Shown: positions 36,380 to 58,182 of the stretch, in pieces | Position numbering within the stretch: the first letter of the stretch is position 1 | How the letters are laid out: every line of letters begins with the position of its first letter | NCBI GenBank assembly: GCA_016218975.1 | Contig: JACRCO010000053.1 | Location: 15,523-79,522, forward strand | Reading direction: 5' to 3' | Source: Deltaproteobacteria bacterium | GTDB taxonomy: Bacteria; Desulfobacterota; Deferrimicrobia; Deferrimicrobiales; Deferrimicrobiaceae | Length of the DNA: 64,000 bases | Made by a program: the position numbers and the translations under genes | The notes under the pieces: model-generated | What the model saw: the letters and a program-made list of their open reading frames with translations, nothing else | Database searches by the model: none | Told to the model about the DNA's origin: nothing

Positions 36380-36383
36380 CCGC

Positions 36384-37416: not shown

Positions 37417-38328
37417 TCAGATACCGGCGATCGAAAACACCGAGATCCGATTCCCCCCTTCTTCAAGGACGTACAGGTTCTCGTGCGGATCGACGGCAAG
37501 GTCCGCCGGGGAGAACAGGCCCTCTCCGCTCATCGAGAAGATCACGTTCCCGAGCGGATCGAGCGCCTTTATCCCGCGACCCCCCTCCTCAACGACCCAT
37601 ATCCGGCTTCGCGCGTCTACCGCGAGGGCCTTGATCCTGAGCGGCTCCCTCGAGCGCAGGGTTGATGTTCCGATCGTCCGAAGCTGTTTCCCGCGGTCGT
37701 CGTACACCCGGATCCCCCCGAACCCCGGGTCCGCCACGTATATCTTTCCCGTACGGTCGACCCATATGTCCGCGGGCTCGCCGACGTCTGCGATGGAGAA
37801 ACGCAGCTTCTCGTCAGCCCCGAAGGCAAGGACCTGCCGGTTCCCCCGGTCGGCGACGTAAAGATCGCCGTTCCAGTCCGCGAAAAGCGCGGCCGGCTGC
37901 ACCGGCGACGTTCTTCTGTATTGCTTGAGATCTATCTCGCGGTACGCCTCGGCGGCAACGGCGTCGTACCCGTCGAGCGCCTTCACGATTTCGCTTTCCC
38001 TCCCGGCGATGAAAAGCTTCCCTCCGCGCGTTGCGGCCACAGCCCTCGGATATCCCAGCTCGCCGCCTTTCCCCAGGACCTTGACGATCTGTCCTTTGCG
38101 GTCCAGAACGGAAACCTGGTGCAGCAGCGGATTGGCGACCGAAAGGTATCCCCTTTGCTCGTCGTACCAGAGGCCTGTCGGGGAAAGTAAGGCGAGGTCC
38201 GGACCGGAAGGAACGATCGTGACGGACCTTTCCAGGCACAGCGTCCGGGCGGGTGCCGGCGCAAGGATCATGAGTGCGGCCGTCAGCACGACCGCGAAAA
38301 GATCCTTTCGTGAAAATACATGGCGCAT
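37417..38328 (-). CDS. NHL-repeat protein, secreted
   Basis: Signal peptide MRHVFSRKDLFAVVLTAALMILAPAPA. Repeats GDLYVADRGNRQVLAF, GKIYVADPGFGGIRVY, ENLYVLEEGGNRISVF. Confidence 0.8.
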   Translation of the reverse strand: MRHVFSRKDLFAVVLTAALMILAPAPARTLCLERSVTIVPSGPDLALLSPTGLWYDEQRGYLSVANPLLHQVSVLDRKGQIVKVLGKGGELGYPRAVAATRGGKLFIAGRESEIVKALDGYDAVAAEAYREIDLKQYRRTSPVQPAALFADWNGDLYVADRGNRQVLAFGADEKLRFSIADVGEPADIWVDRTGKIYVADPGFGGIRVYDDRGKQLRTIGTSTLRSREPLRIKALAVDARSRIWVVEEGGRGIKALDPLGNVIFSMSGEGLFSPADLAVDPHENLYVLEEGGNRISVFSIAGI

Positions 38329-38346
38329 CCCTGCCGGTTCCCTTCC

Positions 38347-40515: not shown

Positions 40516-40583
40516 ACTACTTCACCACCCTTACGGCCCATTTCTATCGCATGTGATGGGAAACGGAAATCCACCGGGAGAGA

Positions 40584-40625
40584 ATGGAATTCTTCCATGT
40601 TTCCGACATGATGGAAATGGAAATA
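40584..40625. promoter_or_regulatory. Cluster of ATGGAA/TTCCAT inverted half-sites and GGAAAT direct repeats upstream of the TolB-like gene
   Basis: ATGGAAttcTTCCATgTTTCCgacatgATGGAAATGGAAAT. The same half-sites occur at 54347..54393. Confidence 0.3.
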
Positions 40626-40711
40626 TAACAATTTGAACCGTAGTTTGCAAGGCATAATTAAGAACCGTTATCAAACGATTCCCTGTCCTTTTTTCCCCAA
40701 AGTAACTATTA

Positions 40712-42052: not shown

Positions 42053-42138
42053 GATCACCCCCCGGAGGTGGTGAAGCCCTGCGGGCGTGGAGTCACGCCC
42101 GCAGGGCGGCATGAAACATTCTCAAATGGACAGGCGAT

Positions 42139-43536: not shown

Positions 43537-43556
43537 TGCATCCTCCGAAGTTTTCT

Positions 43557-43640
43557 CTGGCGGCCCGGCCGTCCTTCCATCGAAGGATCCGTGGGCTTTG
43601 CGTCCCCCGATTACTCGAGGTTTGCCTTTTTCAGAGGATT
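43557..43640 (-). promoter_or_regulatory. GEMM-I (c-di-GMP/cGAMP class) riboswitch candidate in the leader of the family-B hexaheme gene
   Basis: Minus-sense GGCAAACC-UCGA[GUAA]UCGGGG-GACGCAAAGCC aligns base-for-base with the Vc2-type GEMM-I P1 and core. P2 hairpin UCCUUC-GAUG-GAAGGA covaries with the 19418..19500 copy. The P1 overlaps the stop codon of the upstream NHL gene. Confidence 0.7.
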
Positions 43641-44675
43641 GTTGGGTGTTGACTGCGAAGCGATCCGTCGTTCCTGCGAATTTTCCGTGCACGCCGTTTT
43701 CGTTTCCTGCACCACCTCCTTCTCCTTGAGAAATCGAACCTTGAACACCTGCACACGCTTGAGCGTGTTCTCCAGTACGTAGATACGGTCCCTTCCGTCC
43801 GAGGCGATCCGGGAGGGCATGTAGAACTGGCCGTACCCCTCCCCGATCTTTCCGAACTCCTCGATGAACTCCCCCTCCCGGTCGAAGCAGGAGACCTTGT
43901 TGGTGACCGTGCTGACTACGAAGATATGGCCCGCATCGTCGGCGGCGATGCCGATGGGACGGTCGAGCTGGCCGTAGAGAACGCCGGGCGATCCGAAACG
44001 CTTGAATGTTTTTCCCCTGGGGTCGTAGATCACGACGGAATAGGGGCGCATGTCCGTAAAGAGAAACCGGCCGTTCCGATCGACGGCCATCCCGTAAATG
44101 GTGTTCGGCGCCCCCTCGCCGGAGATGGGGATCTCCTCGTGCGCCACGCCGTCGGGGTCCACCTTGACCACCCCCCCCCGCGTCTTGAGCACGTAGATTC
44201 CGCCGCTCCCCCCGTTGGCGATGGCCATTGGGCGGACGGCGCTTCCGGGCGCGTCTACGATCCCGGGGAGAAGAAGCGCGTCCAGGGGGTTCCCGCGGAA
44301 ATCGAGGATGCTGATCTTCGGGCTGTTCACGTGGCCGAGAAACATCCTTCCCTCGGCGTCCACCGCGACCATCCTCGCCGACCCTTCCTTCTCGCCGGGG
44401 TCGATCGCCTGCACGAACATGCCGTTCCGGTCGTATATAAGGATCTTCCGGATGGCGGCGTCCGCGATGTAGAGTTCGCCGGTTTTCCTGTCGACGAAGA
44501 TGTCCATCGGCTCCCGGAGCCTGTCGGAGCGCCCGCCTGCGTACTCGATCGCATAGAGGAACTCGACGCTCAGGAGGCCGCGATCCGTTCCCGCGGCCGG
44601 GGAGGGCGTTGCAGGCCATGGAATCATGAGGATCGCAAGGATGAGCAGAGCGGGAATTTTCAATCTCGACGGCAT
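43611..44675 (-). CDS. NHL-repeat protein, secreted
   Basis: Probable start ATG 44675 (MPSRLKIPALLILAILMIPWPATPSPAAG). NHL-like repeats (GELYIADAAIRKILIYD, GRFLFTDMRPYSVVIYD, GHIFVVSTVTNKVSCFD, DRIYVLENTLKRVQVF). Confidence 0.8.
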   Translation of the reverse strand: MPSRLKIPALLILAILMIPWPATPSPAAGTDRGLLSVEFLYAIEYAGGRSDRLREPMDIFVDRKTGELYIADAAIRKILIYDRNGMFVQAIDPGEKEGSARMVAVDAEGRMFLGHVNSPKISILDFRGNPLDALLLPGIVDAPGSAVRPMAIANGGSGGIYVLKTRGGVVKVDPDGVAHEEIPISGEGAPNTIYGMAVDRNGRFLFTDMRPYSVVIYDPRGKTFKRFGSPGVLYGQLDRPIGIAADDAGHIFVVSTVTNKVSCFDREGEFIEEFGKIGEGYGQFYMPSRIASDGRDRIYVLENTLKRVQVFKVRFLKEKEVVQETKTACTENSQERRIASQSTPNNPLKKANLE

Positions 44676-44786
44676 GACGCCCAAAGGTTTTGCATCGGGC
44701 ATGCCGCTTGCCCACGCCACCTGCAACCGCCCGATAATTCAAAGGGTTTAAAAAATCAGTCGAGACCGGTTACCCTCCTCGAAATC

Positions 44787-44876
44787 CGAAATGAACAAAC
44801 CTTTTGTTCATTTCGACAACGTATCGAAACGGAAACAATTGCGGCGGAAGGTTACGGATTCGGAAACGTGCGCAAT
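44787..44876. promoter_or_regulatory. 29-bp perfect palindrome plus three GGAAAC direct repeats in a divergent intergenic region
   Basis: CGAAATGAACAAA-cct-TTTGTTCATTTCG (44787..44815), then cgaaacGGAAACAATTGcgg and ttcGGAAACgtgcgcaat. GGAAACAATTG recurs as its reverse complement at 54343..54353. Confidence 0.3.
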
Positions 44877-44973
44877 ATCGCCCTCGTCGGGATATCGACC
44901 CGAATTTTCAGGAGATAATCGGCTTTTGAAAGCAGGAATTCCATCCGGCACGCCGATTGCGTATAAAAACGGC

Positions 44974-45370: not shown

Positions 45371-46759
45371 CTATTCCAACCCGAATTTCTTTATCTGGTA
45401 CCTCAGCGACTGATACGTGACGTTCAGGAGTTTCGCCGCCACCGACTTGTTCTGCCTGCTTCTGTCCAGCGCCTGCACGATGAAATCCCTTTCCACGTCA
45501 TCGAGCGAGATTCCCGATTCGGGCAGCAGGAACCGCACTTCGTTTCCGCTTTCCGGTGACGGCAGCGTGCGAACCATCTCCTTCGGCAGGTGTTCCGGCC
45601 GGATCGTATCCGCATTCTCCAGCACGACGAGCCTTTCGATCACGTTTTTCAATTCCCTGACGTTTCCGGGCCACCGGTAGGTCGTCAGCATTTTCGCGGC
45701 CTCCGGGGAAAATCCTTCCACGTTGCACTTGTTATATCTTTTACGGAAGTAGGAAAGGAAATGCTCCGCAAGGACGGGAATATCCTCCCTACGCTCCCTC
45801 AACGGAGGGATGTTGATGGAAAACGCGTTGAGCCGGTAATAGAGATCCATGCGGAAATCGCCCGTTTCGATCCCCTTCACCAGGTCCCGGTTCGTCGTGG
45901 CGATGACGGCGACGTCGACCGGGATCTCCGACCCGCCCCCGATCCTGCGCACCGCTTTCCGCTCCACGATCCGCAACAGCTTCGTCTGGCAGTTCTGCTT
46001 CATGTCGCCGATCTCGTCGAGAAGAATCGTCCCCTTGTTCGCCATTTCAAAGACGCCTTTTTTATCCGCCTTCGCGTCGGTGAAGGCGCCCTTTTCGTAC
46101 CCGAAGAGCTCGCTCTCCAGGAGAGATTCCGGCAGGGCGGTGCAGTTGACGGGGATGAAAGGCGCCCGCCGGGATGCTTCCTCCCCGTGGATCGACCGGT
46201 GGAGGAACCTCGCGATCACTTCCTTCCCCGTGCCGCTTTCCCCGGTGATAAGCAGCGTGGAAACACGCGCCTGCACCATCTTCCGGATCTTTTCCCGGAT
46301 CTCGCCCGCGGCATCGGAAGCGCCTATGAACTCCGCTTCCGAAAGGTCCGAATGGACAAGCCGGAGGGACTGGACCTCCCGCTCGAGCCGGTCTTTCTCG
46401 AAAACCTTGTCGATGACGATTCCGACCTCTTCGAGGTTGAACGGCTTGGTCAGGTAGTCCACGGCGCCCAGTTTCATCGCCTTGATCGCCGTTTCGGCGG
46501 TGTCGTCCGAGGTAAGCATGATCACCTTCGTATCGATCCGGCTGGCGGTGATTTCCTGGAGGATCTCGATGCCGTTCTTCACGGGCAGCTTTATGTCCAG
46601 GAGGACGATGTCGGGAAGGAACGAGTTGACCAGCCCGAGGACGTCATCGCATTTCGTGTCGGGTTGGATCTCGTATCCCTGCTTCCTGAACCATCTCGAC
46701 AGCGTGGCGACGATCAGCGGATCGTCGTCGACGAGCATTATCTTTCCTCTCGCCGTCAT
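45371..46759 (-). CDS. Sigma-54-dependent response regulator (NtrC family), paralog of the 22991..24379 gene
   Basis: Receiver (IMLVDDDPLIV), AAA+ (GESGTGKE, ESELFGYEKGAFTDA), C-terminal HTH. Confidence 0.9.
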   Translation of the reverse strand: MTARGKIMLVDDDPLIVATLSRWFRKQGYEIQPDTKCDDVLGLVNSFLPDIVLLDIKLPVKNGIEILQEITASRIDTKVIMLTSDDTAETAIKAMKLGAVDYLTKPFNLEEVGIVIDKVFEKDRLEREVQSLRLVHSDLSEAEFIGASDAAGEIREKIRKMVQARVSTLLITGESGTGKEVIARFLHRSIHGEEASRRAPFIPVNCTALPESLLESELFGYEKGAFTDAKADKKGVFEMANKGTILLDEIGDMKQNCQTKLLRIVERKAVRRIGGGSEIPVDVAVIATTNRDLVKGIETGDFRMDLYYRLNAFSINIPPLRERREDIPVLAEHFLSYFRKRYNKCNVEGFSPEAAKMLTTYRWPGNVRELKNVIERLVVLENADTIRPEHLPKEMVRTLPSPESGNEVRFLLPESGISLDDVERDFIVQALDRSRQNKSVAAKLLNVTYQSLRYQIKKFGLE

Positions 46760-48216
46760 CCCGGTTTCCCTTCTTCCTCCACCGTTTTTCGCGGAAGAAC
46801 GATCCGGACAAGGATGCCCCCCGCCGGATTGTTCCCCACGGTGATATCGCCGCCGTGCTGCCCGATGAGCTGCCTGCAGATCGCGAGTCCAAGACCGGTC
46901 CCCTTCGATTTCGTGGTGAAGAAGGGCTGGAAAATCTTGCAGATCATGTCCGGGTCGATTCCCTTGCCCGTGTCCGTGATGTCGATCAGGATGGAATCGC
47001 CGGAGACGTCGTAGTGGGTTCCCACGGCGAACATGCCCCCGCCCGGCATGGCGTCGATGGAATTCAGGAGCAGGTTCAGGAAGACCTGCTGGAGCTGGAC
47101 CGGGTCGGCCATCGTCAAGGGAATCCGGTCGTCAAGGTCCTTGACGATCCGGATGCCGTTTTGCCCTTCGGGGGAAGAACGGTTGGATTTCAGGTAGAAA
47201 TCTATCGTCGTGGCGATGATTTCGTTCAGATCGACGCTCTCCCACTGCGGCTTGGGAGGCTTGGCGAAGTTGAGGAAATTCTTCATCAGGGTTTCGAGCC
47301 TGCCCACTTCGTCGACGATCTGCGAAAAGAGGATCCGGTCCTCGTTCCGCAGCGTCAGTTCCTCGGAGAGCAGGTTCACCGCCGCCTTGATCCCGGCGAG
47401 CGGGTTCTTCACCTCGTGCCCCAATCCCGCCGCCAATTCCCCGACAACCGCCATCTGTTCCGTCCGCTGCATCTGGAGCATCTGCTCCTTGAGGGATCTC
47501 GCCATTTTGTTGAAGGAAGCAGACACCTCCCCGAACTCGTCCTTCAGTCCCTCGATCCGGTAATCGAGATCGCCGCTCTCCAGTCTCCGCGTGGCGGTGA
47601 GAAGCTCGTTCATGGGGCGCGCCAGTCCCCGTATGGACACATACGCGAAGATGACCGAGAAGACGGGTCCCGCCGCGATAAGGACGAAGAGCATCGTCTT
47701 CATCAGCGCAATCTGGCGGAACGCCACCTGGGTGTTCGACGAAAGGTTCCTGCTCGTCAGGGCGACTATGCTGTTCACCTTTTCGATCAGCCCCTGCCCC
47801 GTTACGATGGCGCGGTCCTTCTCGGTCTCCAGCCGGTCGCTCCCTGCGCCGAGCGTCAACACGCGGCTTAAGGCATCCTTGTAATTCTCCGTCATGCGCT
47901 TCAGGTCGTTCAGGTTTTCCAACACCTCGGGCGAGTGGTGGCACGTGAAACACTTGTCGGCCACTTTCCCCATGTGAATGCTGTGGGTCACGATGGTATC
48001 GACGCTGCTGGCGTACCGCGTTCCGCTCAAGGTGAGGTCGGACTGCACGCCCTTGATATGGATCAGCAGGTGTTCCCGGAGAATTTCGACCTGGTGCAGC
48101 TTGATGAGCTTGTCGAGCTTCGAAGTCGCCCGTTCGACGGTGACGATGATGTAGATTCCGCAAAGCGTGAACAGGAAACAGATTACACCCAGGGCGATGA
48201 TGATCTTCTTTTTCAT
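46756..48216 (-). CDS. Sensor histidine kinase with CxxCH in the periplasmic loop, paralog of the 24376..25830 gene
   Basis: N-terminal MKKKIIIALGVICFLFTLCGIYII. Periplasmic KVADKCFTCHHS (about 47938..47952). H-box LAAGLGHEVKNPL, HATPase G-boxes. Confidence 0.85.
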   Translation of the reverse strand: MKKKIIIALGVICFLFTLCGIYIIVTVERATSKLDKLIKLHQVEILREHLLIHIKGVQSDLTLSGTRYASSVDTIVTHSIHMGKVADKCFTCHHSPEVLENLNDLKRMTENYKDALSRVLTLGAGSDRLETEKDRAIVTGQGLIEKVNSIVALTSRNLSSNTQVAFRQIALMKTMLFVLIAAGPVFSVIFAYVSIRGLARPMNELLTATRRLESGDLDYRIEGLKDEFGEVSASFNKMARSLKEQMLQMQRTEQMAVVGELAAGLGHEVKNPLAGIKAAVNLLSEELTLRNEDRILFSQIVDEVGRLETLMKNFLNFAKPPKPQWESVDLNEIIATTIDFYLKSNRSSPEGQNGIRIVKDLDDRIPLTMADPVQLQQVFLNLLLNSIDAMPGGGMFAVGTHYDVSGDSILIDITDTGKGIDPDMICKIFQPFFTTKSKGTGLGLAICRQLIGQHGGDITVGNNPAGGILVRIVLPRKTVEEEGKPG

Positions 48217-49194
48217 CTACTCGTTCGAAAACCGGTAGGTGGCAAGGTCGATTCCGAGTTCCCTGGTATAGGACAGCACCGGCTCGTAGTCGGCATCGGT
48301 CGTCCTGATGAAACTCCGCGCCCCGAACGCCTTCAATACTTTCGCTCCTTCCGGGTCCGCATGCATGGTGACCAGCGCCTCCGAAATCTTCCGTTTCACC
48401 GCATCCTCGAGGGTTTTCCGCAACGCCAGGCCGTTTTCGGGCACATCCGCCGATCTCGCCAGGATCGTGAGCTCGCGGCCGATCCGGGGGTCCTCCGCGG
48501 CAAGCCTTTTGAAAACCGTGTTTTTCGCGGCGCCGATATCCGCCGCGTTTTCGAGCACGTCCCGCACCGTGCCTTCGTGCGTACCCGTAAAGTGCACGTC
48601 GCCGAAATAGGAGTCGATGTTCCCGACCCCGGCCCTTTTCATATGGATCAAGGGGAACAGGTACCCCGCGGTGGTCGCCCTGGCCACCAGCGCGAGCCGC
48701 TTCCCCTTCATCCGGCCGACCGTCCTGATTCCGCTGTTTTTCCGGACGAAGATGACCCCATGATACGTCGATGTCCCGTCCGGCTCTTCTGGCCTGGCGA
48801 GGACCTCGACGCCGAGTTTCGCCTTGGCCAACGAATAGCCGAAACTTCCGAAGAAAGCGCCGTCGAGTTTCAGGGCCTCGAAGTTGTCTATTACATTCCC
48901 GTAGTAGGTCAGCACCTTCAATTTGATCCGGACCCCCGCTTTCTTCGACAGGTAGTCGGCGAGGGGCTCGTACCGCTCGATCTGCTTGAAGATGTTCTGT
49001 TCGGGGATAAGGCCGATGAGAAGAGTGGTTTCCGGAGGCGGCTGCTCGGCCGTTTCCCGGTCTCTCTGCCCGCAGCCCGTAAAAAAAGCGAAGAAGAGAA
49101 AAAGGAATGCCAGGAAACGGGGGAACGCCCGGCGAACCCGGGTTTCGCTCAGAAGGCTTTCCGGAACGCTTTCGAGCCCCCCATACGATGGCAC
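48217..49194 (-). CDS. PhnD/SsuA-like periplasmic substrate-binding lipoprotein (start uncertain)
   Basis: The C-terminal ~300 aa of the 792-aa track ORF matches the PhnD-like paralogs (LIGLIPEQNIFKQIERYEPLADYL...). Lipoprotein N-terminus RRAFPRFLAFLFLFFAFFTGCGQ has no in-frame ATG. The nearest candidate is GTG 49194, which overlaps the upstream gene by ~45 nt. Confidence 0.65.
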   Translation of the reverse strand: MPSYGGLESVPESLLSETRVRRAFPRFLAFLFLFFAFFTGCGQRDRETAEQPPPETTLLIGLIPEQNIFKQIERYEPLADYLSKKAGVRIKLKVLTYYGNVIDNFEALKLDGAFFGSFGYSLAKAKLGVEVLARPEEPDGTSTYHGVIFVRKNSGIRTVGRMKGKRLALVARATTAGYLFPLIHMKRAGVGNIDSYFGDVHFTGTHEGTVRDVLENAADIGAAKNTVFKRLAAEDPRIGRELTILARSADVPENGLALRKTLEDAVKRKISEALVTMHADPEGAKVLKAFGARSFIRTTDADYEPVLSYTRELGIDLATYRFSNE

Positions 49195-50456
49195 TTGCCG
49201 CAGCCGTGCGCCGGGTTGTCTCCCGTCGAAGCGACGCCGGACGGATCCTTCTCTCCGGCGGCAAGAAACGAGCGGGCGCCCGTATCCCAGCGCGTCATGT
49301 TCGCGAAGGGGGATGCATGCGCCTTGTGGCACGTCAGGCAGGATATCCGGTCGCTTCCCGCGATCGTGGCAGGGTCGTTCGCGGACGCAGCGCGGCTTCT
49401 CACGGAAAAATCGGCTTCCGCCTTGACCAGCGGATACTTCCAGTCGTAGCCGGCAGGATTGGGGTTGGCGCCCTGCGAATTTACGACCGCGGCCGCATAC
49501 GAGGCGATCCCGTGCTTCGCCCCCGATTCGCCCATCGGCATGTTGGCCGGGTGCCGGATCCACCCTCCCCCGGCGCGCGTTTTCCCGTTGTCGGAGGATC
49601 GCGTTTCCCCGCTCCCCCCGTGGAAGTCGCCGTGGCAGGCCGAACAGAAGGAGGAAAATCCCCCGCGGTAGACGTTCTTGTTGTCGTCCCCTTCCGTTTT
49701 GGATAGATCCGCACTCTCGAGTTCCTGTCCGTCCTTGCGCCGGTTCAGGTAGGAAGTCCCCTGGATGTCGCCGCGAGAATTGGAAAGGATGGGCTCGAAG
49801 CCCGGCGACGTCGCCCCCAAGGTTCCTCCGGAGCTCTCCACCCCTTTTTCCACGGTTTCGTTCCCGGTATGAACGATCCCGTTGACCCTCCGCTTCAGTT
49901 GCCGCCACGCCGCCACCGTCTCCCCGAACCGGTCGTGGGGATCGTGGCAGCTTACGCAGTCGAAGTTGTTGGCCGAAAAGTTCCCTCCTGGCGCGACGGT
50001 CAGGACCGGATCCGAAGGGATCGATGAGGACTGCGCGCCGCGGGTCTTCCCCGGGCTGTGCCCCTTCCGCGGATCCGTCGAACTCCAGTAGAAATCGCCG
50101 GCGGGAAGGGAGGTTCCGCCCGGCGCGGCGCCGTTGGAAGTCATCACGGCAGGGGCCTTGAATGCGGCATTGCCGGGGGCGAGATGACACTGGAGGCAGA
50201 GGTCCGTCACCGACGGTTTCTTCAGAAGGATAGCGGAAGGGCCGCCGGAGGCCGTCCCCGTGGGCTTCGCCGCACCGTCCTCGCCCGAATGGAGAACGTG
50301 GCAATCGCTGCAAACGAGGCCGTCGGCGGAATGGTAAAGCTTCGTGTTCACGCTCAGGGATATGTCCACGTAGGGGAAGGACGGTGAGGGAAAAACGATT
50401 ATCGACCCGATGGCCAGCGTAAAGAAAATAACGGCAGAAGATTTTGTTCCGATCAC
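49149..50456 (-). CDS. Hexaheme c-type cytochrome, family B paralog (start probably GTG 50456)
   Basis: YHSADGLVCSDCHVLHSG, LPAGDF...KGHSPGK, CVSCHDPHDRFG, CSACHGDFHGG, CLTCHKAHASPFANMTRWDTG, C-terminal GCGKCHRMGG. Signal peptide VIGTKSSAVIFFTLAIGSIIVF after GTG with a GGAGAC RBS. Confidence 0.8.
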   Translation of the reverse strand: MIGTKSSAVIFFTLAIGSIIVFPSPSFPYVDISLSVNTKLYHSADGLVCSDCHVLHSGEDGAAKPTGTASGGPSAILLKKPSVTDLCLQCHLAPGNAAFKAPAVMTSNGAAPGGTSLPAGDFYWSSTDPRKGHSPGKTRGAQSSSIPSDPVLTVAPGGNFSANNFDCVSCHDPHDRFGETVAAWRQLKRRVNGIVHTGNETVEKGVESSGGTLGATSPGFEPILSNSRGDIQGTSYLNRRKDGQELESADLSKTEGDDNKNVYRGGFSSFCSACHGDFHGGSGETRSSDNGKTRAGGGWIRHPANMPMGESGAKHGIASYAAAVVNSQGANPNPAGYDWKYPLVKAEADFSVRSRAASANDPATIAGSDRISCLTCHKAHASPFANMTRWDTGARSFLAAGEKDPSGVASTGDNPAHGCGKCHRMGGSKAFRKAF

Positions 50457-50614
50457 CGTCAGAGTCTCCGCTCGATTCTTCCGAAGGAACCCGTTTGCCG
50501 GGATTCCCGATGGCAACTTTCATTTCGGAAGAAGGAACGGATACCCTTAGCAGCATAACGTCAAGTTTTTGACATATTCGGTAATAAATATTCAATGCAG
50601 GTCCTTGATAGCCG

Positions 50615-50685
50615 GCCGGGGCCCTTAAGCGGCAAAGGGCCCCGGCATCAAATTACCGGGGCCCCCGAGGGGAGGAGAGCCCCGG
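50615..50685 (-). terminator. Two GC-rich stem-loops between the MtrB-like gene and the downstream hexaheme gene
   Basis: gccggggccc-N12-gggccccggc (50615..50646) and ccggggc-N16-gccccgg (50656..50685). No clear U-tract. Possible attenuator or processing site. Confidence 0.35.
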
Positions 50686-50697
50686 CCTCGCTGTCGG

Positions 50698-53172
50698 TTA
50701 GAACTTGTACACCAGGTAGACCTGGCCGACGTGCGCTTCGTAACTCTTGTAAGTCGCGTCGGCGAAGACGAACCTGGTCGAATTCTCGGCCGTCAGCCCC
50801 GCCATGTAGGGCTGCAGGTTGTCCCAGGCGAAATCGTCGAGCTTGTACCACTCGAACAGGTAGCCGACCCCAACCGTCACGTTGCTGAACCACTTGTAGG
50901 CAAGGTTGGCCTTGACCTCGTGCAGCCGGTTGACCACGGAGGGCCAGGGCTGCGCCACCGCGTTGGAGAGCTTTGCGCCGTTGGTGAACCCGTTGGCGAT
51001 AGCCAGGTCCCTGTTGGGGTTGAAGGTGTTGTAGTCCGCTTTGCTGTAAGACAGGTTGTAAGAGGTATCGAGCGTCAGCTTGTTGGGTACGAGCTGCAGC
51101 TTGGCGCCCAAACCCACCGTGTCCGTCGTTTCCTTGATGTCGGTGCTCCAGTAGTTCAGAGGGTTGAAGTTTCCGAAAAGCGTCGTCTCGTTGTCCGTTG
51201 TGGAGGCGATGTCGAAGGAGTCGTCCTTGGCGGCCGAGTCCATCCTGCTCTTCCGGTACTCTCGCAGGTAGCTGAGGATGAGGGAGACCCTCTCGGTTGG
51301 CGTGTAAGTTACATCCAGGCCGCCCCCGGCGTTCTCGACCTTCTTGAGTCCGAACCGGCTGTCCTGGGCCAACTTGTCCCGTAAATACAGGCCGTGGATA
51401 CCGAGAGAAAGGATATCCGACGGGTCGTATGAGAACCTTGCATCTGCCTTGTGGCGCACGCGGTCGGCCCAATCGTAATTCCTCAAGCCCACCGCCTCGG
51501 GGTTTTCCGCCCTGTCGCCCGCCTTGTAACCGTCGACGGTCCGCTTCGCATATTTGTAGGCGGCCTTCAGGTTCGCGGTTTTCGTCGGCTTGTAAAGGAA
51601 GCCGGCGCCGGCGCTCCATTCCGTGGTGGAGTCGATCCGGAGCTTCTCCCGTTTCCATCCCTCCCACCCGGCGTCGAACAGGAGTGTCAGCGGCTTCGAA
51701 GCGTGATAGTCGAGGAGCAGGTTTGCGGTCTGCCGGGTGAAGGAGAGCGGCTCGTTGAAAACGGCCGCGTCGGTTGTGCTGGTGTCGTTTTTGATCAACC
51801 GCCAGTAGGATTCGCCGAATCCGGCATAGCCGGGGAACCGGATCTCGCTCGAATCGTTGTTGTAATCGTAGAAGCGGTACTTAAGCGTCGCCTTGAGCGG
51901 TTCGATCGGCCTGCCGGTGATCTTGAAGCTCCCTGCAAGCGTCTTTACATCGCCGTCCAGGTTCGACTTGGGAAGGCTCCCTGCGTTCGTCACATCGAAG
52001 GTGGGGGATGCTCCAGGGGCGCCGGAGAAGGTCAGGTTGTTCAGGGCGCTGTTCAACGAGTAGGGAACGAACGGGCTGTCCTGCGTGATCCATCCGTAAC
52101 TGACGGTGCCGGAAAACCTGCCGCGGTACGGCAGGTCCGCCCCCCCCGACACGGTGAAGTCGTGCGACTTGCTGTCGGGCGGAAGGGAAAGCTGGCCGCG
52201 TGCGAACCGGCCGCGTTCGAAACCGTTGTCACCGGCCGCGGCCGAAGCGCCTGCCGAGCTCGTCGCGGTGTTGTCGGAGATACGGAACGGGTTGTCCCAG
52301 ATCAGCGCGCCATTGCCGTTGTTGAAATCGGTAAACGTGTATTCGAGGTCCGCCAGCCAGCTTTTCTTGTAGATCCCCGCTCCGACCGAAACGGAGGTCG
52401 TGCGGTAGTCGATCGGCTCCGCAAGGTCGGCCCCGCTCACCACGAACAGGTCGGCGGTGTGCGCAAGCCCGCTTCCCTGGGCGTAGCGTTCGTACGTCCC
52501 GGCCGTGATCACCCTGGCGCCGGTCCGCTTTTCGTTCGTCACCTTGGCCCAGGTTTTGACGTCCTGGGAAATGTTCAGTTCGAGCGAGAAGCCGGCCTTC
52601 TCACGCTTGAGCTTGAACGTGAACGGATTGGCTTCCGAATAAAGTCCCCTGACGATCGACTGGGCAAGCGCGTCCTCACCGGTGGTATCGGTGATAACGT
52701 TCCCGCGCTCCACGCGCGTTTGTTCCACCGCCTGGAGGGCGCTCTGGACGTTATCGGGAATGGAGAGCCGGTTGGTCCCTGCGCCGTTGAACAGGAGCGT
52801 GCCGCCGCTGAAGTTGTGGGGTATGGTGTCGAAGTAGATGTTGTACTTGAACTTGCCGTGCTTCCCGCCCGTCACGCTGTAGTATTCGTTTTCCTGCGCG
52901 GGATTCTTGATCTTCACGTCGAGGAAGTACCCCGCGTCTCGCTCCATCTTGAACGCGGCATCGTTGAACAGGAAGCCGTTCTTCACGTCGCGGTACTCCT
53001 CGAACTTCTCGTCGGAGCCCCTGACGTTCTTCTGCTGCACGGCGGCGTCGACCTGCCCGGAGGTCTCCCCGATCCAGGCGCCGAACTGCTGCTGGGCTTG
53101 CGCCGTTCCGGCGTACAGCGCGAGCGACAGGAGCAGGGCGGCCGCCGCGCATGCGATTTTTCCGCGAATCAT
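50698..53172 (-). CDS. MtrB/PioB-family outer-membrane porin candidate (decaheme-associated beta-barrel), about 825 aa
   Basis: ORF trimmed to ATG 53172 (GGAGGAA RBS; MIRGKIACAAAALLLSLALYAGTAQA). Ends YLVYKF. Gly/Tyr/Asp-rich barrel-like repeats. Immediately downstream of an MtrA/DmsE-family decaheme gene; size close to PioB/MtoB. Confidence 0.7.
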   Translation of the reverse strand: MIRGKIACAAAALLLSLALYAGTAQAQQQFGAWIGETSGQVDAAVQQKNVRGSDEKFEEYRDVKNGFLFNDAAFKMERDAGYFLDVKIKNPAQENEYYSVTGGKHGKFKYNIYFDTIPHNFSGGTLLFNGAGTNRLSIPDNVQSALQAVEQTRVERGNVITDTTGEDALAQSIVRGLYSEANPFTFKLKREKAGFSLELNISQDVKTWAKVTNEKRTGARVITAGTYERYAQGSGLAHTADLFVVSGADLAEPIDYRTTSVSVGAGIYKKSWLADLEYTFTDFNNGNGALIWDNPFRISDNTATSSAGASAAAGDNGFERGRFARGQLSLPPDSKSHDFTVSGGADLPYRGRFSGTVSYGWITQDSPFVPYSLNSALNNLTFSGAPGASPTFDVTNAGSLPKSNLDGDVKTLAGSFKITGRPIEPLKATLKYRFYDYNNDSSEIRFPGYAGFGESYWRLIKNDTSTTDAAVFNEPLSFTRQTANLLLDYHASKPLTLLFDAGWEGWKREKLRIDSTTEWSAGAGFLYKPTKTANLKAAYKYAKRTVDGYKAGDRAENPEAVGLRNYDWADRVRHKADARFSYDPSDILSLGIHGLYLRDKLAQDSRFGLKKVENAGGGLDVTYTPTERVSLILSYLREYRKSRMDSAAKDDSFDIASTTDNETTLFGNFNPLNYWSTDIKETTDTVGLGAKLQLVPNKLTLDTSYNLSYSKADYNTFNPNRDLAIANGFTNGAKLSNAVAQPWPSVVNRLHEVKANLAYKWFSNVTVGVGYLFEWYKLDDFAWDNLQPYMAGLTAENSTRFVFADATYKSYEAHVGQVYLVYKF

Positions 53173-53210
53173 CTGCCGTTCCTCCGTGGAATGTATATTC
53201 GTCATGTTCG

Positions 53211-54116
53211 TCACCTCTGCAGGACCGGTCCGGACGGGTTGTTGGACCCGTGGATCATCGGGTGGCAGTTCAGGCAGGACCTGTTTATGGCGTAGGCGGA
53301 GTTCGTGGAGAGGGTCCCCGTCTGATGCCTTCCCTGCATGTGGCACTGCTGGCAGAGGCGCGGCGCTTTCTGTACCAGCATCTTGTCGAAGGAAGACCCG
53401 TGCGCGGCGTGGCAGGTGAGGCAGTCCTCCTTGACCGGCGAATGTTCCCAGAGAACCGGCGCCTTCTTCTCCGCGTGGCATTCGTAACACTTGTCGTTGA
53501 CGGACTTGGCGTTTATGAGCTTCTCGCTCCTTGCTCCGTGCGGGTTGTGGCATGCGGAGCAGCCCATCTTCCCCTCCTGGGTCGGGGAAGAGGAATCCCG
53601 CATCGGGTGCTTCGACCTCTTAAGCATCGTGGCGCGCACCTCTCCGTGGCAACCGAAGCAGACCTGCTTTTCATCGGCATTGGAAAGAAGGTGCTGCTTC
53701 CCTCCATGCACCTTGTGGCAGGCGACGCAGCCGGCTTCCTGGCTGTCGTGGGCGCTCCCCTTCCAGAACAACTGCACCTTGTCTTTGGAATGGCAGGAAG
53801 CGCAGACCGCCGTGGCGGCTTCCGCCGCGATTTTGGCCGGGTTGACGATTTTGGTCTTGTCCCCCTCTTTCACGTGTTCCGCCGCGGGGCCGTGGCACGA
53901 TTCGCAGCCGCTTATCTTCGCGCCGTAGTACGCGGTCTTAGAGTGGATGTTGGTGCGGAAAGGTCCGACGATCGCTTCATGGCACTCCTTGCATTTCTCG
54001 CTTCCGACGTAGCCGCCGCCGTCCGCGGCGAGCACGAGCATGGCCGCCGCCAGGATCAGAAAGACCGCCAGCGCCGCCACCCGGACGAGCCTTACGGGCT
54101 TAGCCGTTTCTCTCAT
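53211..54116 (-). CDS. MtrA/PioA/DmsE-family periplasmic decaheme cytochrome c
   Basis: ORF trimmed to ATG 54116 (AAGGAGG RBS; MRETAKPVRLVRVAALAVFLILAAAMLVLAA). Exactly 10 CxxCH motifs in about 300 aa, ending ...CQQCHMQGRHQ...CLNCHPMIHGSN as in the MtrA family. Confidence 0.85.
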   Translation of the reverse strand: MRETAKPVRLVRVAALAVFLILAAAMLVLAADGGGYVGSEKCKECHEAIVGPFRTNIHSKTAYYGAKISGCESCHGPAAEHVKEGDKTKIVNPAKIAAEAATAVCASCHSKDKVQLFWKGSAHDSQEAGCVACHKVHGGKQHLLSNADEKQVCFGCHGEVRATMLKRSKHPMRDSSSPTQEGKMGCSACHNPHGARSEKLINAKSVNDKCYECHAEKKAPVLWEHSPVKEDCLTCHAAHGSSFDKMLVQKAPRLCQQCHMQGRHQTGTLSTNSAYAINRSCLNCHPMIHGSNNPSGPVLQR

Positions 54117-54331
54117 CAAACCGAACCTCCTTTGTCTGTGCGTTTCTATCGATCGATCCCGAAAAGCTTCAACTGCTTCCTGAGATGTTGAAAAAAACAA
54201 TTTTGATTTATCCAGAGGGATTCTCAGCAATCGGCATGCCGATTATGGCAGGCGGAAGCGCTGACGAATTTTCAAACTATTATCGAAAGGTTAGGGGGCG
54301 AATGACTGAGACGTCTCACTGCAGGCAAGTT

Positions 54332-54393
54332 GTTGAAGTCAACAATTGTTTCCATAGGGAAACAAAGAGAAGGCCACGTTTCCATATGGAAAC
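54332..54393. promoter_or_regulatory. Three adjacent palindromes upstream of the mtrA-like gene
   Basis: GTTGAagTCAAC (54332..54343), TGTTTCCATAGGGAAACA (54347..54364), and the perfect 16-bp GTTTCCATATGGAAAC (54378..54393). They lie ~215-285 bp upstream of the mtrA-like start and are candidate activator sites. Confidence 0.35.
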
Positions 54394-54424: not shown

Positions 54425-55792
54425 CTATCCTTTCAGGCGCTCCCAAAGAGCCTTGCGGCCTATGCCCAAAAGCTCCGAGGCGCCGGTCTTGCTTCCCCCC
54501 GTTGCCCTTAGCGCCCGCTGAATATGATCGAGCTCGAACCGCCTTACCGCCTCCTTCAACGGGAGGATCGCCCGGGGGTCGGAATTCTCACCGGAGGATG
54601 TATTGAGCGAGTCCGGGATCTCCGGTGGAAGGTGCCTGGGCTCGATCGTCCCTTCCCTGCAAAGAATGGTGGCGCGCTCGACGATGTTCCACAATTCCCG
54701 GACGTTCCCCGGGTAACCGTAGTTCATGAGGAGCGACATCGAGCTTTCGGAGACGCTGCGGTTGCCTCCGAGTTTCCCGACGAAATTTTCGACGAGCAGG
54801 GGAACGTCCTCGAGCCGATCGCGCAGCGGGGGAAGCCGGATCGCGAAGACGTTCAACCGATAAAACAGGTCCTCCCGAAACCCACCCTCGGCGACCATCG
54901 ACTTCAGGTCGTCCTTGTTCGTTGCAGTGACTATGCGGATGTCGACCGGAACGTTTTCGTGCCCGCCGATCCTCGTGATGACGCGCTCCTGGAGCACACG
55001 CAAAAGCTTCGCCTGCGCCGGGAGCGGCATATCCGCTATTTCGTCGAGGAAAAGGGTGCCCCCGCCTGCCTGCTCGATCTTGCCTTCGGTGCGTTTCAGC
55101 GCCCCGGTGAAGGCGCCCTTCTCGAAACCGAAAAGCTCCGCTTCGAACAGGGTTTCGGGTATCGCCGCGCAGTTGAGCGCCACGAACGGCCCGTCTTTCC
55201 TTTTTCCACGCCGGTGGACCGCCCTCGCGACCAGCTCTTTACCGGTGCCGCTCTCCCCGAGGATAAGCACAGTGGCGTCGGTATCGGCTACAAGCGTGAC
55301 GAGGTCGAAAACCTCCCGCATTGGCTTGCTCTTTCCGATCAGCTCCTCGAAACGCGACTGCGATGCGATGAGCTTCTTAAGGTCCCGGTTTTCCTCTTCG
55401 AGCGCCCTGACGCGCAGGACCTTGTTCAGCAGCAGCATGAACTCTTCCATCGAGAACGGCTTGGTCAGGTAATCTTCGGCGCCGAGTTTCATCGCCGCCA
55501 CGGCGGATTCGACGCTGCCGAAACCGGTGATGGTTATGACTGACGGAGCCGGGGTTTTCGACTTCGCCTCCTTGAGGACTTCCAGCCCGTCTTTGCCGGG
55601 AAGCCTTATGTCCGTAACGACGATGTCGAACGTTTCCGAAGCGAGCAGGCGGACCGCATCCCCGCCGTCGTCCGCGGAGGAGACGGCGTATCCCGCTTCT
55701 TCAAGGTTGTCCGTCAAGGTGAAGCGCAATCCAGGATCGTCTTCCACGACCAGGATCCGTCGGCAAGGCGTGTCCATCGTGGCCCCTTTCAT
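54425..55792 (-). CDS. Sigma-54-dependent response regulator (NtrC family)
   Basis: Receiver (RILVVEDDPGLR...DIVVTDIRLPGKDG), AAA+ (GESGTGKE, EAELFGFEKGAFTGA), C-terminal HTH. Start is ATG 55792 or 55777. Confidence 0.9.
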   Translation of the reverse strand: MKGATMDTPCRRILVVEDDPGLRFTLTDNLEEAGYAVSSADDGGDAVRLLASETFDIVVTDIRLPGKDGLEVLKEAKSKTPAPSVITITGFGSVESAVAAMKLGAEDYLTKPFSMEEFMLLLNKVLRVRALEEENRDLKKLIASQSRFEELIGKSKPMREVFDLVTLVADTDATVLILGESGTGKELVARAVHRRGKRKDGPFVALNCAAIPETLFEAELFGFEKGAFTGALKRTEGKIEQAGGGTLFLDEIADMPLPAQAKLLRVLQERVITRIGGHENVPVDIRIVTATNKDDLKSMVAEGGFREDLFYRLNVFAIRLPPLRDRLEDVPLLVENFVGKLGGNRSVSESSMSLLMNYGYPGNVRELWNIVERATILCREGTIEPRHLPPEIPDSLNTSSGENSDPRAILPLKEAVRRFELDHIQRALRATGGSKTGASELLGIGRKALWERLKG

Positions 55793-57277
55793 CTATGTAG
55801 GCGAGCACGGCAGAGAGATGAAAAACGTCGTGCCGTCTCCCGGCCTGGAGGTAACGCGCATTCTCCCCCCGTGCTGTTCCACGATTTTCTTGCAAACCGC
55901 GAGCCCAAGTCCGGTCCCCTTCCCCGCTACTTTCGTCGTGAAGAACGGCTCGAATATCCTTTCGTGGTTCTCCTCCGGGATCCCGCAGCCCGTATCCGCC
56001 ACGACAAGGGTATGGAATTGCCCGTCGTTCATGTGCCCGATATCCAGCTTTCCCCCGGAAGGCATGGCGGCGACGGCGTTCAGCACCAGGTTGACCATGA
56101 CCTGTTCGATCTTGTGGGCGTCCGCTCTCACGGTCACGGAAGGAACGCGGTTCGCCACCTCTATCCGCCCCTTGTCGAGCTGGAAGTCCAGGAGCTCGAG
56201 CGTCTTCCCGACGAGGACCCGGAGGTTGCATTCGGAATAGTGCGTCGCATGCACCGTCGAGTAGTCGAGAAGCTGCGAGACCGCACGGTGGATGCTTTCG
56301 AGACTTTCGCCGACCACCGTAAGGTACTGCTCCCGCTTGTGGGGAGGCAGCGACTCCTTCTTAAGCGCCTGGACTCCGTGCATCGCCCCCGTCAGCGGGC
56401 TGTTGACTTCGTGCGCAAGTCCGGCGGCCAGCGTCCCGATAGTCGCCATTTTCTCGGTGCCGGTCAGAAGCTCCTGGGTCCTTTTTCGCTCGACCTCCTC
56501 TTCTCTCAGCCGGTTCACCATGATCCGGTAGCTGTCGTAGAGCTTGCCCAGCTCGTCGTTACGGCCGGGGAGCGGGGCGGGGTCGAGGTTTCCCAGCCGC
56601 ACCGAATCAAGCGCGTCCGACAATCGGCGGATCGGCCTCGTCATTATCCTGGCGGCGGCGAAGACGGCAAATACGAGGACGAACGCGGCGGAAAGCGATA
56701 TGAACAGGATTTTCCTGCTCAGCGCGTTGACTTCATCGGCCATTCCCGCGAGGGAATAGCCGATGCGCAGGGTCCCGAACCGCTTGGATGAGATGCTCAA
56801 CGGCGCCGCCACGTCGATCAAGCCGCCGTCCAGCGGCTCCCCGACCATGGTGAGTGTTATGTCGGAGGCGGACAGCGCCTTCGCGGTCAAGGGGTCGTCC
56901 GGATGCTTGCGAAACTGCGTCAGGTCGCTGTGGGAGAGGACGACGCCGTCCGGACCGAGGACCATGGCGTAGGTCACGCGCATGTCCTTGTTTCCGGCAA
57001 GCCGCGCAATGTAGAGGTCCAGCAGCCCCGCCTCGGCCACAAGGCCGATCTCTTCATAGAGCAAAACCTGGGTGATGGGAAACCGCATCGAAACGGCCAG
57101 GGTCCGCGCCGCACGCCTCTCCCTTTCCAGGAGATGGCTCTTTTCCTCCTCGACGAGGGAAACATGCAGGGCCAGCGCGAAGAAAAAGATGGCTGCCACT
57201 CCCGCGGTCGTGAACTTCCCCGCCAGAGAGGAAAAGGGGCGTCTTATTATTTCAGGAACGGATTCGATGAGTGGCAA
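55793..57277 (-). CDS. Sensor histidine kinase (two TM helices, periplasmic domain without heme motif, HAMP, HisKA, HATPase); start uncertain (TTG 57277?)
   Basis: H-box LAAGLAHEVNSPL, G-boxes DTGCGIP / GTGLGLAVCK. No ATG between the upstream stop and TM1; TTG 57277 would overlap the PhnD-like gene by 30 nt. Confidence 0.75.
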   Translation of the reverse strand: MPLIESVPEIIRRPFSSLAGKFTTAGVAAIFFFALALHVSLVEEEKSHLLERERRAARTLAVSMRFPITQVLLYEEIGLVAEAGLLDLYIARLAGNKDMRVTYAMVLGPDGVVLSHSDLTQFRKHPDDPLTAKALSASDITLTMVGEPLDGGLIDVAAPLSISSKRFGTLRIGYSLAGMADEVNALSRKILFISLSAAFVLVFAVFAAARIMTRPIRRLSDALDSVRLGNLDPAPLPGRNDELGKLYDSYRIMVNRLREEEVERKRTQELLTGTEKMATIGTLAAGLAHEVNSPLTGAMHGVQALKKESLPPHKREQYLTVVGESLESIHRAVSQLLDYSTVHATHYSECNLRVLVGKTLELLDFQLDKGRIEVANRVPSVTVRADAHKIEQVMVNLVLNAVAAMPSGGKLDIGHMNDGQFHTLVVADTGCGIPEENHERIFEPFFTTKVAGKGTGLGLAVCKKIVEQHGGRMRVTSRPGDGTTFFISLPCSPT

Positions 57278-58182
57278 CGGATGCCGCAACCCCCGGCGCC
57301 GGTTATCGAAGTGATCTTGCGGTAAAGGAAATCGTACTCTTCGCCGTGCGCTGTAACGAATCCCCCGCGGATTTCCGGCCCGAGGCCTTCCGATCCGGAC
57401 CGCCCTCTTTCCTTCGTTTCGTCGATCGACAGGAGGGCCCCCGTCAACGCCTTCTCCGCATCCATGGAAAGGGACGGACCCGCTGCGATCGGCGCGTTCG
57501 GCAGCTCTTCCGACACGGCGACGACCCGCAGCCCCTGATCCTTGTACTTCCACGCGACGACGTCCTTCACGGCCCCCGCTTCGAAAACCCCCTTCAGAAC
57601 CGCCCTTGCAACCTCCTCGTGATTGCGCAGATTCTTCCTGCGACCGAGTTTGTCGGGGGTCACGCCCGCTTCGCAAAGCATTATCGTGGGAATCAGGCTG
57701 CCGGTCGTGGAACGCCGGGCTCCGAACGCGAAACTTCGTCCTTTCAGATCGGACAATTTCCGGACGGGGCTGTCGCTCCGAACGATGATGTTGCACCGAT
57801 ACGCCGACTTCCCCTGCGCGTTCAATGGCTTTACGAGCGCCCGTGCGCCGAATCGGTGCCTGGCAAGGGCGTAAGTCGCGCCGCCGAGATACGCGACGTC
57901 GGTGACTCCCTTGCGCAGATCTTCTATCGTTTCCATGTAAGATCGGCCGATCCGGAGCTCGAATCTATATGGGGTATTCCGCGAAAGGTAATCCATCAGC
58001 GGCTGGTAATATTCGTACATCACGTGAGGATTGAACCTCGGGATGACGCCGAAACGGATGGTCCTGTTTCCCGAATTTTCGGGAAAGCCCGCTGTCGCGG
58101 GAGCCGCAATGAGGAAAGCAAGAAAAAAGGCCCCCCACACCCTGTGGCGGGCAATGAGCACACTCTTCAATACGCTTCGCAT
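57247..58182 (-). CDS. PhnD-like (phosphate/phosphonate ABC) periplasmic substrate-binding protein
   Basis: Signal peptide MRSVLKSVLIARHRVWGAFFLAFLIAAPATA. RFGVIPRFNP...VAYLGGATYA...RSTTGSLIP pattern of the PhnD/TIGR01098-like family. Confidence 0.75.
   Translation of the reverse strand: MRSVLKSVLIARHRVWGAFFLAFLIAAPATAGFPENSGNRTIRFGVIPRFNPHVMYEYYQPLMDYLSRNTPYRFELRIGRSYMETIEDLRKGVTDVAYLGGATYALARHRFGARALVKPLNAQGKSAYRCNIIVRSDSPVRKLSDLKGRSFAFGARRSTTGSLIPTIMLCEAGVTPDKLGRRKNLRNHEEVARAVLKGVFEAGAVKDVVAWKYKDQGLRVVAVSEELPNAPIAAGPSLSMDAEKALTGALLSIDETKERGRSGSEGLGPEIRGGFVTAHGEEYDFLYRKITSITGAGGCGIRCHSSNPFLK

Follow-up and report, generated by a model that had tools for sequence, protein, structure and literature searches.

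The 64,000-nt stretch of Deltaproteobacteria DNA analyzed here (hereafter, the window) encodes an MtrA-like decaheme cytochrome followed by an MtrB-like outer-membrane β-barrel and, as the next gene, a hexaheme cytochrome related to OmcS. The mtrA-mtrB pair belongs to the already known MtrC-less MtrAB (MtoAB/PioAB-like) kind and comes with a conserved cassette of sensor and σ54-regulator genes. We favor, with some reservation, the reading that the locus represents a stand-alone MtrC-less MtrAB conduit with its own regulatory cassette inside a modular extracellular-electron-transfer island, and that the hexaheme is not a dedicated subunit of this conduit. How electrons enter cytochrome filaments outside the cell is under debate, with porin-cytochrome conduits on one side and direct charging by periplasmic PpcA-E on the other, and a natural operon in which an Mtr conduit is joined to an OmcS-type cytochrome would offer a valuable test of the question. 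As the evidence presented below indicates, the locus is not such an operon; a mobile mtrAB-plus-sensor cassette, which is found in several phyla in groundwater, has come to lie next to an OmcS-like module in a single lineage. The genes described here are all located on the minus strand, as are their sequence elements. The window proteins are 100% identical to NCBI proteins of a metagenome-assembled genome (MAG) labeled Deltaproteobacteria bacterium (locus tags HY896_06765 to 06830, on a 276-kb contig).

The mtrA-like gene (53211-54116) starts with an ATG codon, with AAGGAGG just upstream, and codes for a periplasmic cytochrome of 301 amino acids. Ten CxxCH motifs were counted in it, which is the heme number of the DmsE/MtrA family, and the DmsE family model TIGR03508 matches it with 238.3 bits (curated cut-off, 192.2). 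The alignment with Shewanella baltica MtrA (6r2q_A) has an E-value of 3e-63 and reaches the C-terminus. Judged by eye, the N-terminus (MRETAKPVRLVRVAALAVFLILAAAMLVLA followed by ADGGG) resembles a Sec signal, and predicted export together with a neighboring barrel gene is in line with membership in the DmsE/MtrA family. The family of the Geobacter sulfurreducens decaheme GSU2203 (NF041028) was considered as another assignment and rejected, as the score of 240.6 bits is below the curated cut-off of 325.

The mtrB/pioB-like gene (50698-53172) starts 39 nt downstream of mtrA, with GGAGGAA just upstream of its start, and its product of 824 amino acids ends in ...VYKF. The protein passes TIGR03509 (293 bits; curated cut-off, 240.05) and matches PF11854 (MtrB_PioB) with 437 bits over model positions 5-635 of 635. 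An AlphaFold (AF2) model built from 12 homologues has a mean pLDDT (predicted local distance difference test) score of 63.5, with values of 80-94 in the strands, and contains ~26-27 long strands. When the model was compared with the Protein Data Bank (PDB) by Foldseek, the top match was MtrB (6r2q_B, E = 8e-32, template modeling (TM) scores 0.51/0.62), with TonB-dependent receptors far behind. The number of strands and the C-terminal aromatic residue are those of an MtrB/PioB protein. A partial match to the GSU2204 CXXCH (seleno)protein family (NF041027; E = 1e-17) is below the curated cut-off of 350, and this assignment was rejected. Thus, the ~300-aa DmsE/MtrA-family decaheme with 10 CxxCH motifs and the ~825-aa MtrB/PioB-like barrel that an earlier note on this DNA had proposed were both confirmed by profiles, the latter also by its predicted fold.

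The same note had stated that no MtrC/OmcA-type decaheme is present, and this holds for the window. None of the multiheme open reading frames (ORFs) in the 64 kb reaches the cut-off of the OmcA/MtrC model TIGR03507 (209.3 bits), the best score, 110.7 bits, coming from a 42-heme protein. No OmcA/MtrC decaheme lipoprotein was found in the 10-kb flanks of related mtrAB loci either. Within the window, therefore, the three-component MtrCAB arrangement, in which an OmcA/MtrC lipoprotein is encoded with mtrAB, is absent, and the two-component MtoAB/PioAB arrangement, mtrA-mtrB without mtrC, is present, as it is in ~25 related loci. The immediate neighbors of mtrAB are a sensor set upstream and the hexaheme downstream, with housekeeping-type genes beyond 58.2 kb; neither mtoD, cymA(mtoC) nor pioC adjoins the pair, and no small monoheme cytochrome, high-potential iron-sulfur protein (HiPIP) or quinol dehydrogenase was found among the neighbors.

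Twenty-five genome loci with mtrAB and several metagenome contigs (individual loci are designated by L or P numbers) were scanned by BLASTP and CxxCH counting. The MtrB proteins of this clade are 40-82% identical to each other and at most 30% identical to other MtrB/PioB proteins recovered; they come from groundwater MAGs of Deltaproteobacteria, Geobacter/Geotalea (including G. uraniireducens Rf4), Nitrospirae/Thermodesulfovibrionia and many Elusimicrobia. mtrA and mtrB are always paired in the loci collected, and in most of them genes for a kinase and an NtrC-type σ54-dependent regulator are located directly upstream, usually after a PhnD-like gene. The combination of mtrA-mtrB with the kinase and the σ54 regulator recurs in ~25 loci of Deltaproteobacteria, Geobacter/Geotalea, Nitrospirae and Elusimicrobia.

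The downstream side is far less constant. Among the 24 related loci with at least 2 kb of sequence beyond mtrB, 16 have no ORF with at least three hemes within 5 kb past this gene. An OmcS-related hexaheme follows mtrB in just two loci, L003 (82% MtrB identity) and L031, a Joint Genome Institute (JGI) contig, which are the closest relatives of the window; it is absent from the other 22, including the relatives with 67-69% MtrB identity (L004, L032, L033 and L034). A transposase gene is found at this place in G. uraniireducens, and unrelated genes in L032 and L034. In the reverse test, 55 metagenome loci encoding hexahemes of the OmcS-related family B (described below) or more distant OmcS-like hexahemes were inspected, and MtrB was found near the hexaheme in none of them.

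Other cytochrome genes were observed downstream of mtrB in several loci. In L004 (12943-16918), the MAG that comes next in relatedness, mtrB is directly followed by a porin-cytochrome (Pcc)-type trio of a 412-aa barrel (...NVDF), a 253-aa 9-heme cytochrome and a 647-aa 10-heme lipoprotein (LLAGC). The last protein was considered as a candidate MtrC and rejected, since it has no TIGR03507 match at E <= 0.001. In Elusimicrobia L008 (2661-9393) and L010 (6849-7859), a second DmsE-family decaheme (TIGR03508, 249.8 bits) follows mtrB; in L008, it is followed in turn by a CbcL-like protein with 11 hemes and a cytochrome b561 domain and by a 13-heme NapC/NirT-type protein, and these genes together add up to a complete pathway from quinol to the cell surface, in a phylum from which electron export is not known. 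As the L004 trio makes evident, the conduit module placed next to mtrAB differs between lineages.

The sensor set upstream of mtrA begins with a PhnD-like periplasmic substrate-binding protein (57247-58182; TIGR01098, 132.7 bits at a cut-off of 112), which is also encoded upstream of mtrA in L001, L003, L004, L020, L024, L026, L032, L033 and L034. It is followed by a sensor histidine kinase (HAMP/HisKA/HATPase; 55793-57250, the start coordinate being approximate) with AtoS/ZraS-like NCBIfam matches and by an NtrC-type σ54-dependent response regulator (54425-55792) with full-length AtoC/NtrC-type matches. Kinase orthologues carry sCache_3_2, HAMP, HisKA and HATPase_c domains, and regulator orthologues carry Response_reg, Sigma54_activat and HTH_8 domains. 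The window holds three PhnD-like/kinase/σ54-regulator sets (54425-58182, 45371-49137 and 22991-27706, all on the minus strand), the third with two PhnD-like genes; the second and third sets directly follow cytochrome genes, those of the hexaheme and of the 42-heme protein, respectively.

A pattern scan revealed two perfect palindromes GTTTCC-N4-GGAAAC, 30 bp apart, at 54348-54393. These are the only two perfect matches in the whole window, and both are located upstream of mtrA. L003, L004, L032 and L034 retain the half-sites GTTTC-N6-GAAAC at the same 30-bp distance, and L033 has a single copy; the inner bases differ among relatives. A σ54-type promoter element, CGGCATGCCGATTGCT (GG-N10-GC; 54226-54241), is found ~110 nt before the mtrA ATG, and the palindromes lie ~110-150 nt further upstream than this element. 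Matches to the σ54-type consensus are not enriched across the window, and the position and sequence of the element are conserved in L003, L004, L032, L033 and L034. The palindromes are putative enhancer sites of the regulator, and together with the σ54 element and the adjacent NtrC-type regulator gene they would correspond to the classic layout of an enhancer-dependent promoter. Since neither the promoter nor the palindromes could be recognized by simple patterns in the more distant Geobacter and Elusimicrobia loci, we restrict the regulatory claim to the close subclade.

Between mtrB and the hexaheme gene, the earlier note had pointed to two GC-rich hairpins, and these proved to be real (50606-50697; -59.9 kcal/mol, z = -4.4); they are a probable terminator or 3' end. 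Two hairpins are also present after mtrB in L031, and one in L003, where it is followed by U8 and thus forms a canonical intrinsic terminator. Just four strong hairpin sites of this kind exist in the 64 kb, all of them intergenic; a repeat family was considered and rejected, the hairpins not being a dispersed repeat. Alignment of the window, L003 and L031 revealed a conserved promoter-like block (GTCA-N6-TGAC, TTGACG...TAAGGGTA) with a structured leader at 50457-50600. In all three sequences, the leader (50457-50545) has the same architecture, a nested stem that pairs the GGAG ribosome-binding site, with folding energies of -35 to -40.5 kcal/mol and compensatory changes among the three, and it may be a regulatory RNA element. 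No family match was obtained for it in an Rfam search.

A pattern scan found no σ54 promoter in front of the hexaheme gene, and the mtrA palindrome is represented there by a single copy with 2 mismatches, which is located inside the leader and is not conserved. Shared regulation of mtrAB and the hexaheme was rejected on these grounds. On its other side, the hexaheme stop codon is separated by 11 nt from the start of the PhnD-like gene of the second sensor set (45371-49137; ORFs 48217-49137, 46756-48216 and 45371-46759). Given the hairpins, the upstream block of its own and the 11-nt gap, the sequence argues for two separate units, mtrAB on the one hand and the hexaheme with the second sensor set on the other.

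The hexaheme itself (49149-50456) is a protein of 435 amino acids whose GTG start aligns with the ATG of relatives and which has an NCBI counterpart of equal length. As the earlier note had it, this next gene is an OmcS-related hexaheme of family B. It contains six CxxCH motifs in the same order as in OmcS, and residues 61-433 align with residues 1-367 of OmcS chain 6ef8_A (E = 1.3e-22, ~27% identity), so that homology to OmcS extends over nearly the full length. The protein is probably secreted, as it has a plausible Sec signal. In Hexa49-type signal peptides (this being the type of our hexaheme), a Tyr is found at the position of the AYA cleavage site of the Hexa40 paralogue. The segment CSDCHVLH aligns with CEGCHTMH of OmcS, which means that the CxxCHxxH histidine (the His16 position) is kept. 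We take OmcS His16 to be the ligand of heme 5 of the neighboring subunit, a role that reportedly goes back to the OmcS structure of Wang et al. 2019. One axial ligand of OmcS heme 5 does come from the neighboring subunit (PMC6584659).

The hexaheme was rejected as an OmcS orthologue: its identity to OmcS is 27% versus 52-54% for two other hexahemes of the window (18127-19395 and 20818-22086), and it falls into the separate family B cluster. In the window, this family also includes the paralogues Hexa42 (42139-43536) and Hexa40 (40712-42112); the three are 52-64% identical to each other and 25-28% identical to OmcS. The six motifs and the non-motif histidines, that of CxxCHxxH among them, are kept in all family B and OmcS-type hexahemes of the window that were compared, and family B differs from OmcS in having additional segments, an extended N-terminus and a C-terminus of the form ...K[AG]F. 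All family B hexahemes end in ...GG(S/T)KA(F/Y)xK(A/G)F (49149-49180, 42139-42170 and 40712-40745, minus strand). The family is widespread among uncultured Deltaproteobacteria, Nitrospiraceae, Desulfobulbaceae and Geobacteraceae, where its members are annotated as hypothetical only. In G. sulfurreducens, wire formation is known only for OmcS out of four paralogues (bioRxiv 10.1101/2025.11.06.686851).

There are six OmcS-related hexahemes in the window, which corresponds to ~1/8 of its genes, and adjacency of one of them to mtrB alone is therefore weak evidence. A neighbor-joining tree places the hexaheme in a small clade (window, L003, P0123 and L028) that is sister to the Hexa40 type. The Hexa49-type gene that branches off earliest is that of L028, and it follows not mtrB but a different block, built around a 585-aa barrel; another contig from this metagenome (L032) carries an mtrAB cassette by itself. 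Hence, the position of the hexaheme beside mtrB looks derived and lineage-specific.

Taken together, these data suggest the following scheme. The PhnD-like protein and the histidine kinase would signal to the NtrC-type regulator, which would bind the two palindromes and fire the σ54 promoter, and the resulting mtrA-mtrB transcript would end at the hairpins. By homology to the Mtr complex 6R2Q, the Sec-exported decaheme would thread the ~26-strand barrel, giving a wire of 10 hemes through the outer membrane. Uncapped by MtrC, the heme at the outer end may exchange electrons directly with soluble or colloidal substrates or with displayed extracellular cytochromes. The hexaheme would be a recent family B paralogue that has a promoter of its own and is transcribed along with the second sensor set. 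It would possibly be one of several acceptors of the conduit rather than a dedicated subunit, and its place beside mtrB would reflect juxtaposition of two modules in one narrow lineage.

Several observations weigh against this scheme. The promoter calls at the locus are consensus matches. The hairpins, which in the window and in L031 have no U tract, may only attenuate transcription, and read-through is possible. The same-strand order of mtrB and then hexaheme is kept in three independent assemblies (window, L003 and L031). Finally, wherever a Hexa49-type gene was seen, an outer-membrane conduit lies next to it (MtrAB in three cases, the 585-aa-barrel block in one), as would be expected if family B proteins generally act as conduit partners.

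The alternative that fares best is that the hexaheme functionally belongs to the second sensor set and the family B block downstream of it (44726 to 32167) and has no functional link to MtrAB. We regard this as quite possible, though not as the likeliest explanation. It is favored by the 11-nt spacing noted above and by synteny: the order of hexaheme and second sensor set is also found in L003 and L031, and L003 keeps the whole series of hexaheme, PhnD, kinase, regulator, NHL, Hexa42 and Hexa40. Likewise, the 42-heme gene is located directly before two PhnD-like genes, a kinase and a regulator (30897 to 22991), and in L035, L038, L040 and L041 synteny links family B hexahemes to the barrel block, as it does the Hexa49 type in L028. 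On the other hand, no clear σ54 promoter was found for the 44726-32167 block.

A second alternative concerns the direction of electron flow. By analogy with MtoAB/PioAB of Fe(II) oxidizers, the MtrAB of the window might work inward, with Fe(II), minerals or partner cells as the source of the electrons, which we consider doubtful. Large barrels are a feature of PioB/MtoB-type systems, and the two-gene, MtrC-less architecture with an 824-aa barrel agrees with this possibility, as do the frequent occurrence of the clade in groundwater MAGs of several phyla and the Elusimicrobia locus L008, where mtrAB is paired with CbcL-like and NapC-like, quinone-linked cytochromes. Clusters without mtrC are typical of oxidizers (PMC8805035, PMC4245776). 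However, OmcS-type and giant multiheme cytochromes, as are typical of metal reducers, abound in the host island, the pair has no MtoD- or PioC-like neighbor, and Mtr conduits are reversible, so that direction is not readable from sequence (PMC8805035).

The earlier note had interpreted the locus as a hybrid porin-cytochrome complex with a nanowire-type cytochrome as its extracellular partner. In such a complex, the Hexa49-type hexaheme would replace MtrC as the dedicated extracellular partner of MtrAB; it would cap the conduit or serve as the foot of an OmcS-like filament and be fed by MtrA heme 10. Part of the note's interpretation stood, namely, the MtrC-less conduit and an OmcS-related protein as the product of the next gene; a dedicated complex appears unlikely. 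The conserved same-strand adjacency, the conservation of all six heme motifs and of the CxxCHxxH histidine, the plausible Sec signal and the small clade that Hexa49-type genes form of their own are consistent with it. In addition, OmcS raises current in S. oneidensis only when MtrA and MtrB are present, MtrC being present too (bioRxiv 10.1101/2023.10.26.564108), and a hand-off from Mtr to OmcS is thus plausible in principle. Against it are the terminator-type hairpins and the separate promoter-like block between mtrB and the hexaheme, the lack of a σ54 promoter and of a conserved palindrome copy in the hexaheme region, the count of 2/24 mtrAB loci with a hexaheme and of 0/55 OmcS-like loci with MtrB, and the attachment of the same hexaheme type to a different conduit-like block in L028, with mtrAB alone in L032. 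It is more improbable still that a duplicated OmcS-related hexaheme was recruited as an extracellular MtrAB partner in a narrow groundwater lineage, docking on, or polymerizing from, the heme-10 face of MtrA; if true, a Shewanella-type conduit would here be naturally joined to a nanowire cytochrome of the Geobacter type, and the question of how OmcS-like filaments plug into the cell would have a concrete answer. With three proteins, few and well defined, the locus is a reasonable candidate for studies of an MtrAB-to-hexaheme interaction.

As a stand-alone MtrC-less conduit, the locus can be compared with several known systems. It shares with Shewanella MtrCAB (6R2Q) an MtrA-type decaheme, an MtrB-type barrel and the gene order mtrA then mtrB. 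Unlike that system, it has no MtrC/OmcA decaheme lipoprotein in the window, its barrel is ~130 residues longer and matches 6r2q_B weakly by sequence alone (E = 1e-9), and its predicted regulation involves σ54 and a two-component system. MtoAB of Sideroxydans/Gallionella and PioAB of Rhodopseudomonas palustris are likewise made of two genes without MtrC, with a large barrel and proteins of the TIGR03508 and TIGR03509 families; in contrast to them, the window has no adjoining mtoD, cymA(mtoC) or pioC, and its host has the look of a metal reducer of the Geobacter type. Electron transfer across membranes by MtrAB on its own is established, as is the existence of mtr clusters that lack mtrC (PMC4245776; PMC8805035).

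A parallel to the cassette is found in Geotalea uraniireducens Rf4 (CP000698, 4.24 Mb), which has the PhnD-like protein, the kinase, the σ54 regulator, MtrA (67% identity) and MtrB (51% identity) and no MtrC, but a transposase instead of the hexaheme after mtrB. Soares et al. 2024 described MtrA-family decahemes in operons with MtrB/PioB genes across Desulfuromonadia (PMC11492766); Geobacterales MtrA/MtrB operons contain 'ABC transporter substrate-binding protein' genes, and MtrC is present in two species only (PMC11492766). The subclade of the window differs from these operons in coming, with its relatives of 67-82% identity, from uncultured groundwater Deltaproteobacteria. The hexaheme resembles OmcS (6EF8) and its paralogues OmcT, OmcJ and GSU2501/OscC in its six ordered motifs and conserved non-motif histidines; it differs from OmcS in its low identity (~27%), while truer OmcS-type genes are found elsewhere in the window. 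The Geobacter Pcc complexes OmaB-OmbB-OmcB and ExtABCD also consist of a barrel that sheathes multiheme cytochromes, and modules of this sort co-occur in the island (the 585-aa-barrel block here; the trio after mtrB in L004); the window pair, however, is Mtr-type, and the porins and cytochromes of Pcc complexes have no sequence relationship to MtrB and MtrA (PMC4245776). For annotation purposes, MtrC-less MtrAB with a PhnD-like/kinase/σ54 set can be treated as a recurring unit, and the more consistent companion of family B genes is a different block of barrel and cytochrome genes.

This block occupies 32167-44726 (minus strand) and consists of an NHL gene, family B hexaheme(s), a TolB/PD40-like propeller (38347-40515), two NHL genes, a 6-heme and a 9-heme cytochrome and the 585-aa barrel. 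The 6-heme protein is an OmcS-like hexaheme of 336 amino acids (35369-36379), the 9-heme cytochrome is encoded at 33936-35393, and the barrel extends from 32167 to ~33920, all on the minus strand. The block with the barrel recurs in L035, L038, L040 and L041, and more distant OmcS-like loci from soil metagenomes retain a core of hexaheme, 6-heme and 9-heme genes. No Pfam or NCBIfam match was found for the 585-aa protein. Its AF2 model (pLDDT 84.7) is confident and shows a large barrel of ~28 strands with the C-terminus ...FSKSF; among PDB entries, MtrB matches it best, if not by a wide margin. The block may serve as a second conduit through the outer membrane, or it may secrete and assemble these hexahemes in the manner of the osc cluster (see below).

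Directly upstream of two of the hexaheme genes, riboswitches were recognized by Rfam models: a c-di-GMP-I riboswitch (c-di-GMP being cyclic dimeric GMP) in front of Hexa42 (43556-43636, minus strand; 62.2 bits, gathering cut-off 35) and a c-di-GMP-I-GGC variant in front of the OmcS-type gene at 18127-19395 (19412-19495, minus strand; 60.8 bits, gathering cut-off 59). The stretch 6524-19495 (minus strand) contains, after this OmcS-type hexaheme, genes for a 478-aa β-propeller, a 756-aa protein without family match, a GNA1162-like lipoprotein and a PpiC/SurA-like isomerase (578 aa), as well as a 26-heme ORF (8717-10702) and a 16-heme ORF (7432-8778). It resembles the osc (OmcS companion) cluster GSU2500-2493, as described in papers that cite the original account, in size, heme count and order only. 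The 16-heme and 26-heme ORFs, both on the minus strand, overlap by ~60 nt in different frames and could either represent two genes or result from a frameshift within a single 42-heme gene; an intact 42-heme ORF is located elsewhere in the window (27748-30897). Finally, a palindrome with 12-bp arms, GAAATGAACAAA-AGG-TTTGTTCATTTC (~44795-44823), is found between the NHL gene and a divergent CheY-like gene, and a σ54-like element, CGGCACGCCGATTGCG (44946-44961), which is near-identical to the mtrA element, is located in front of the CheY-like gene.

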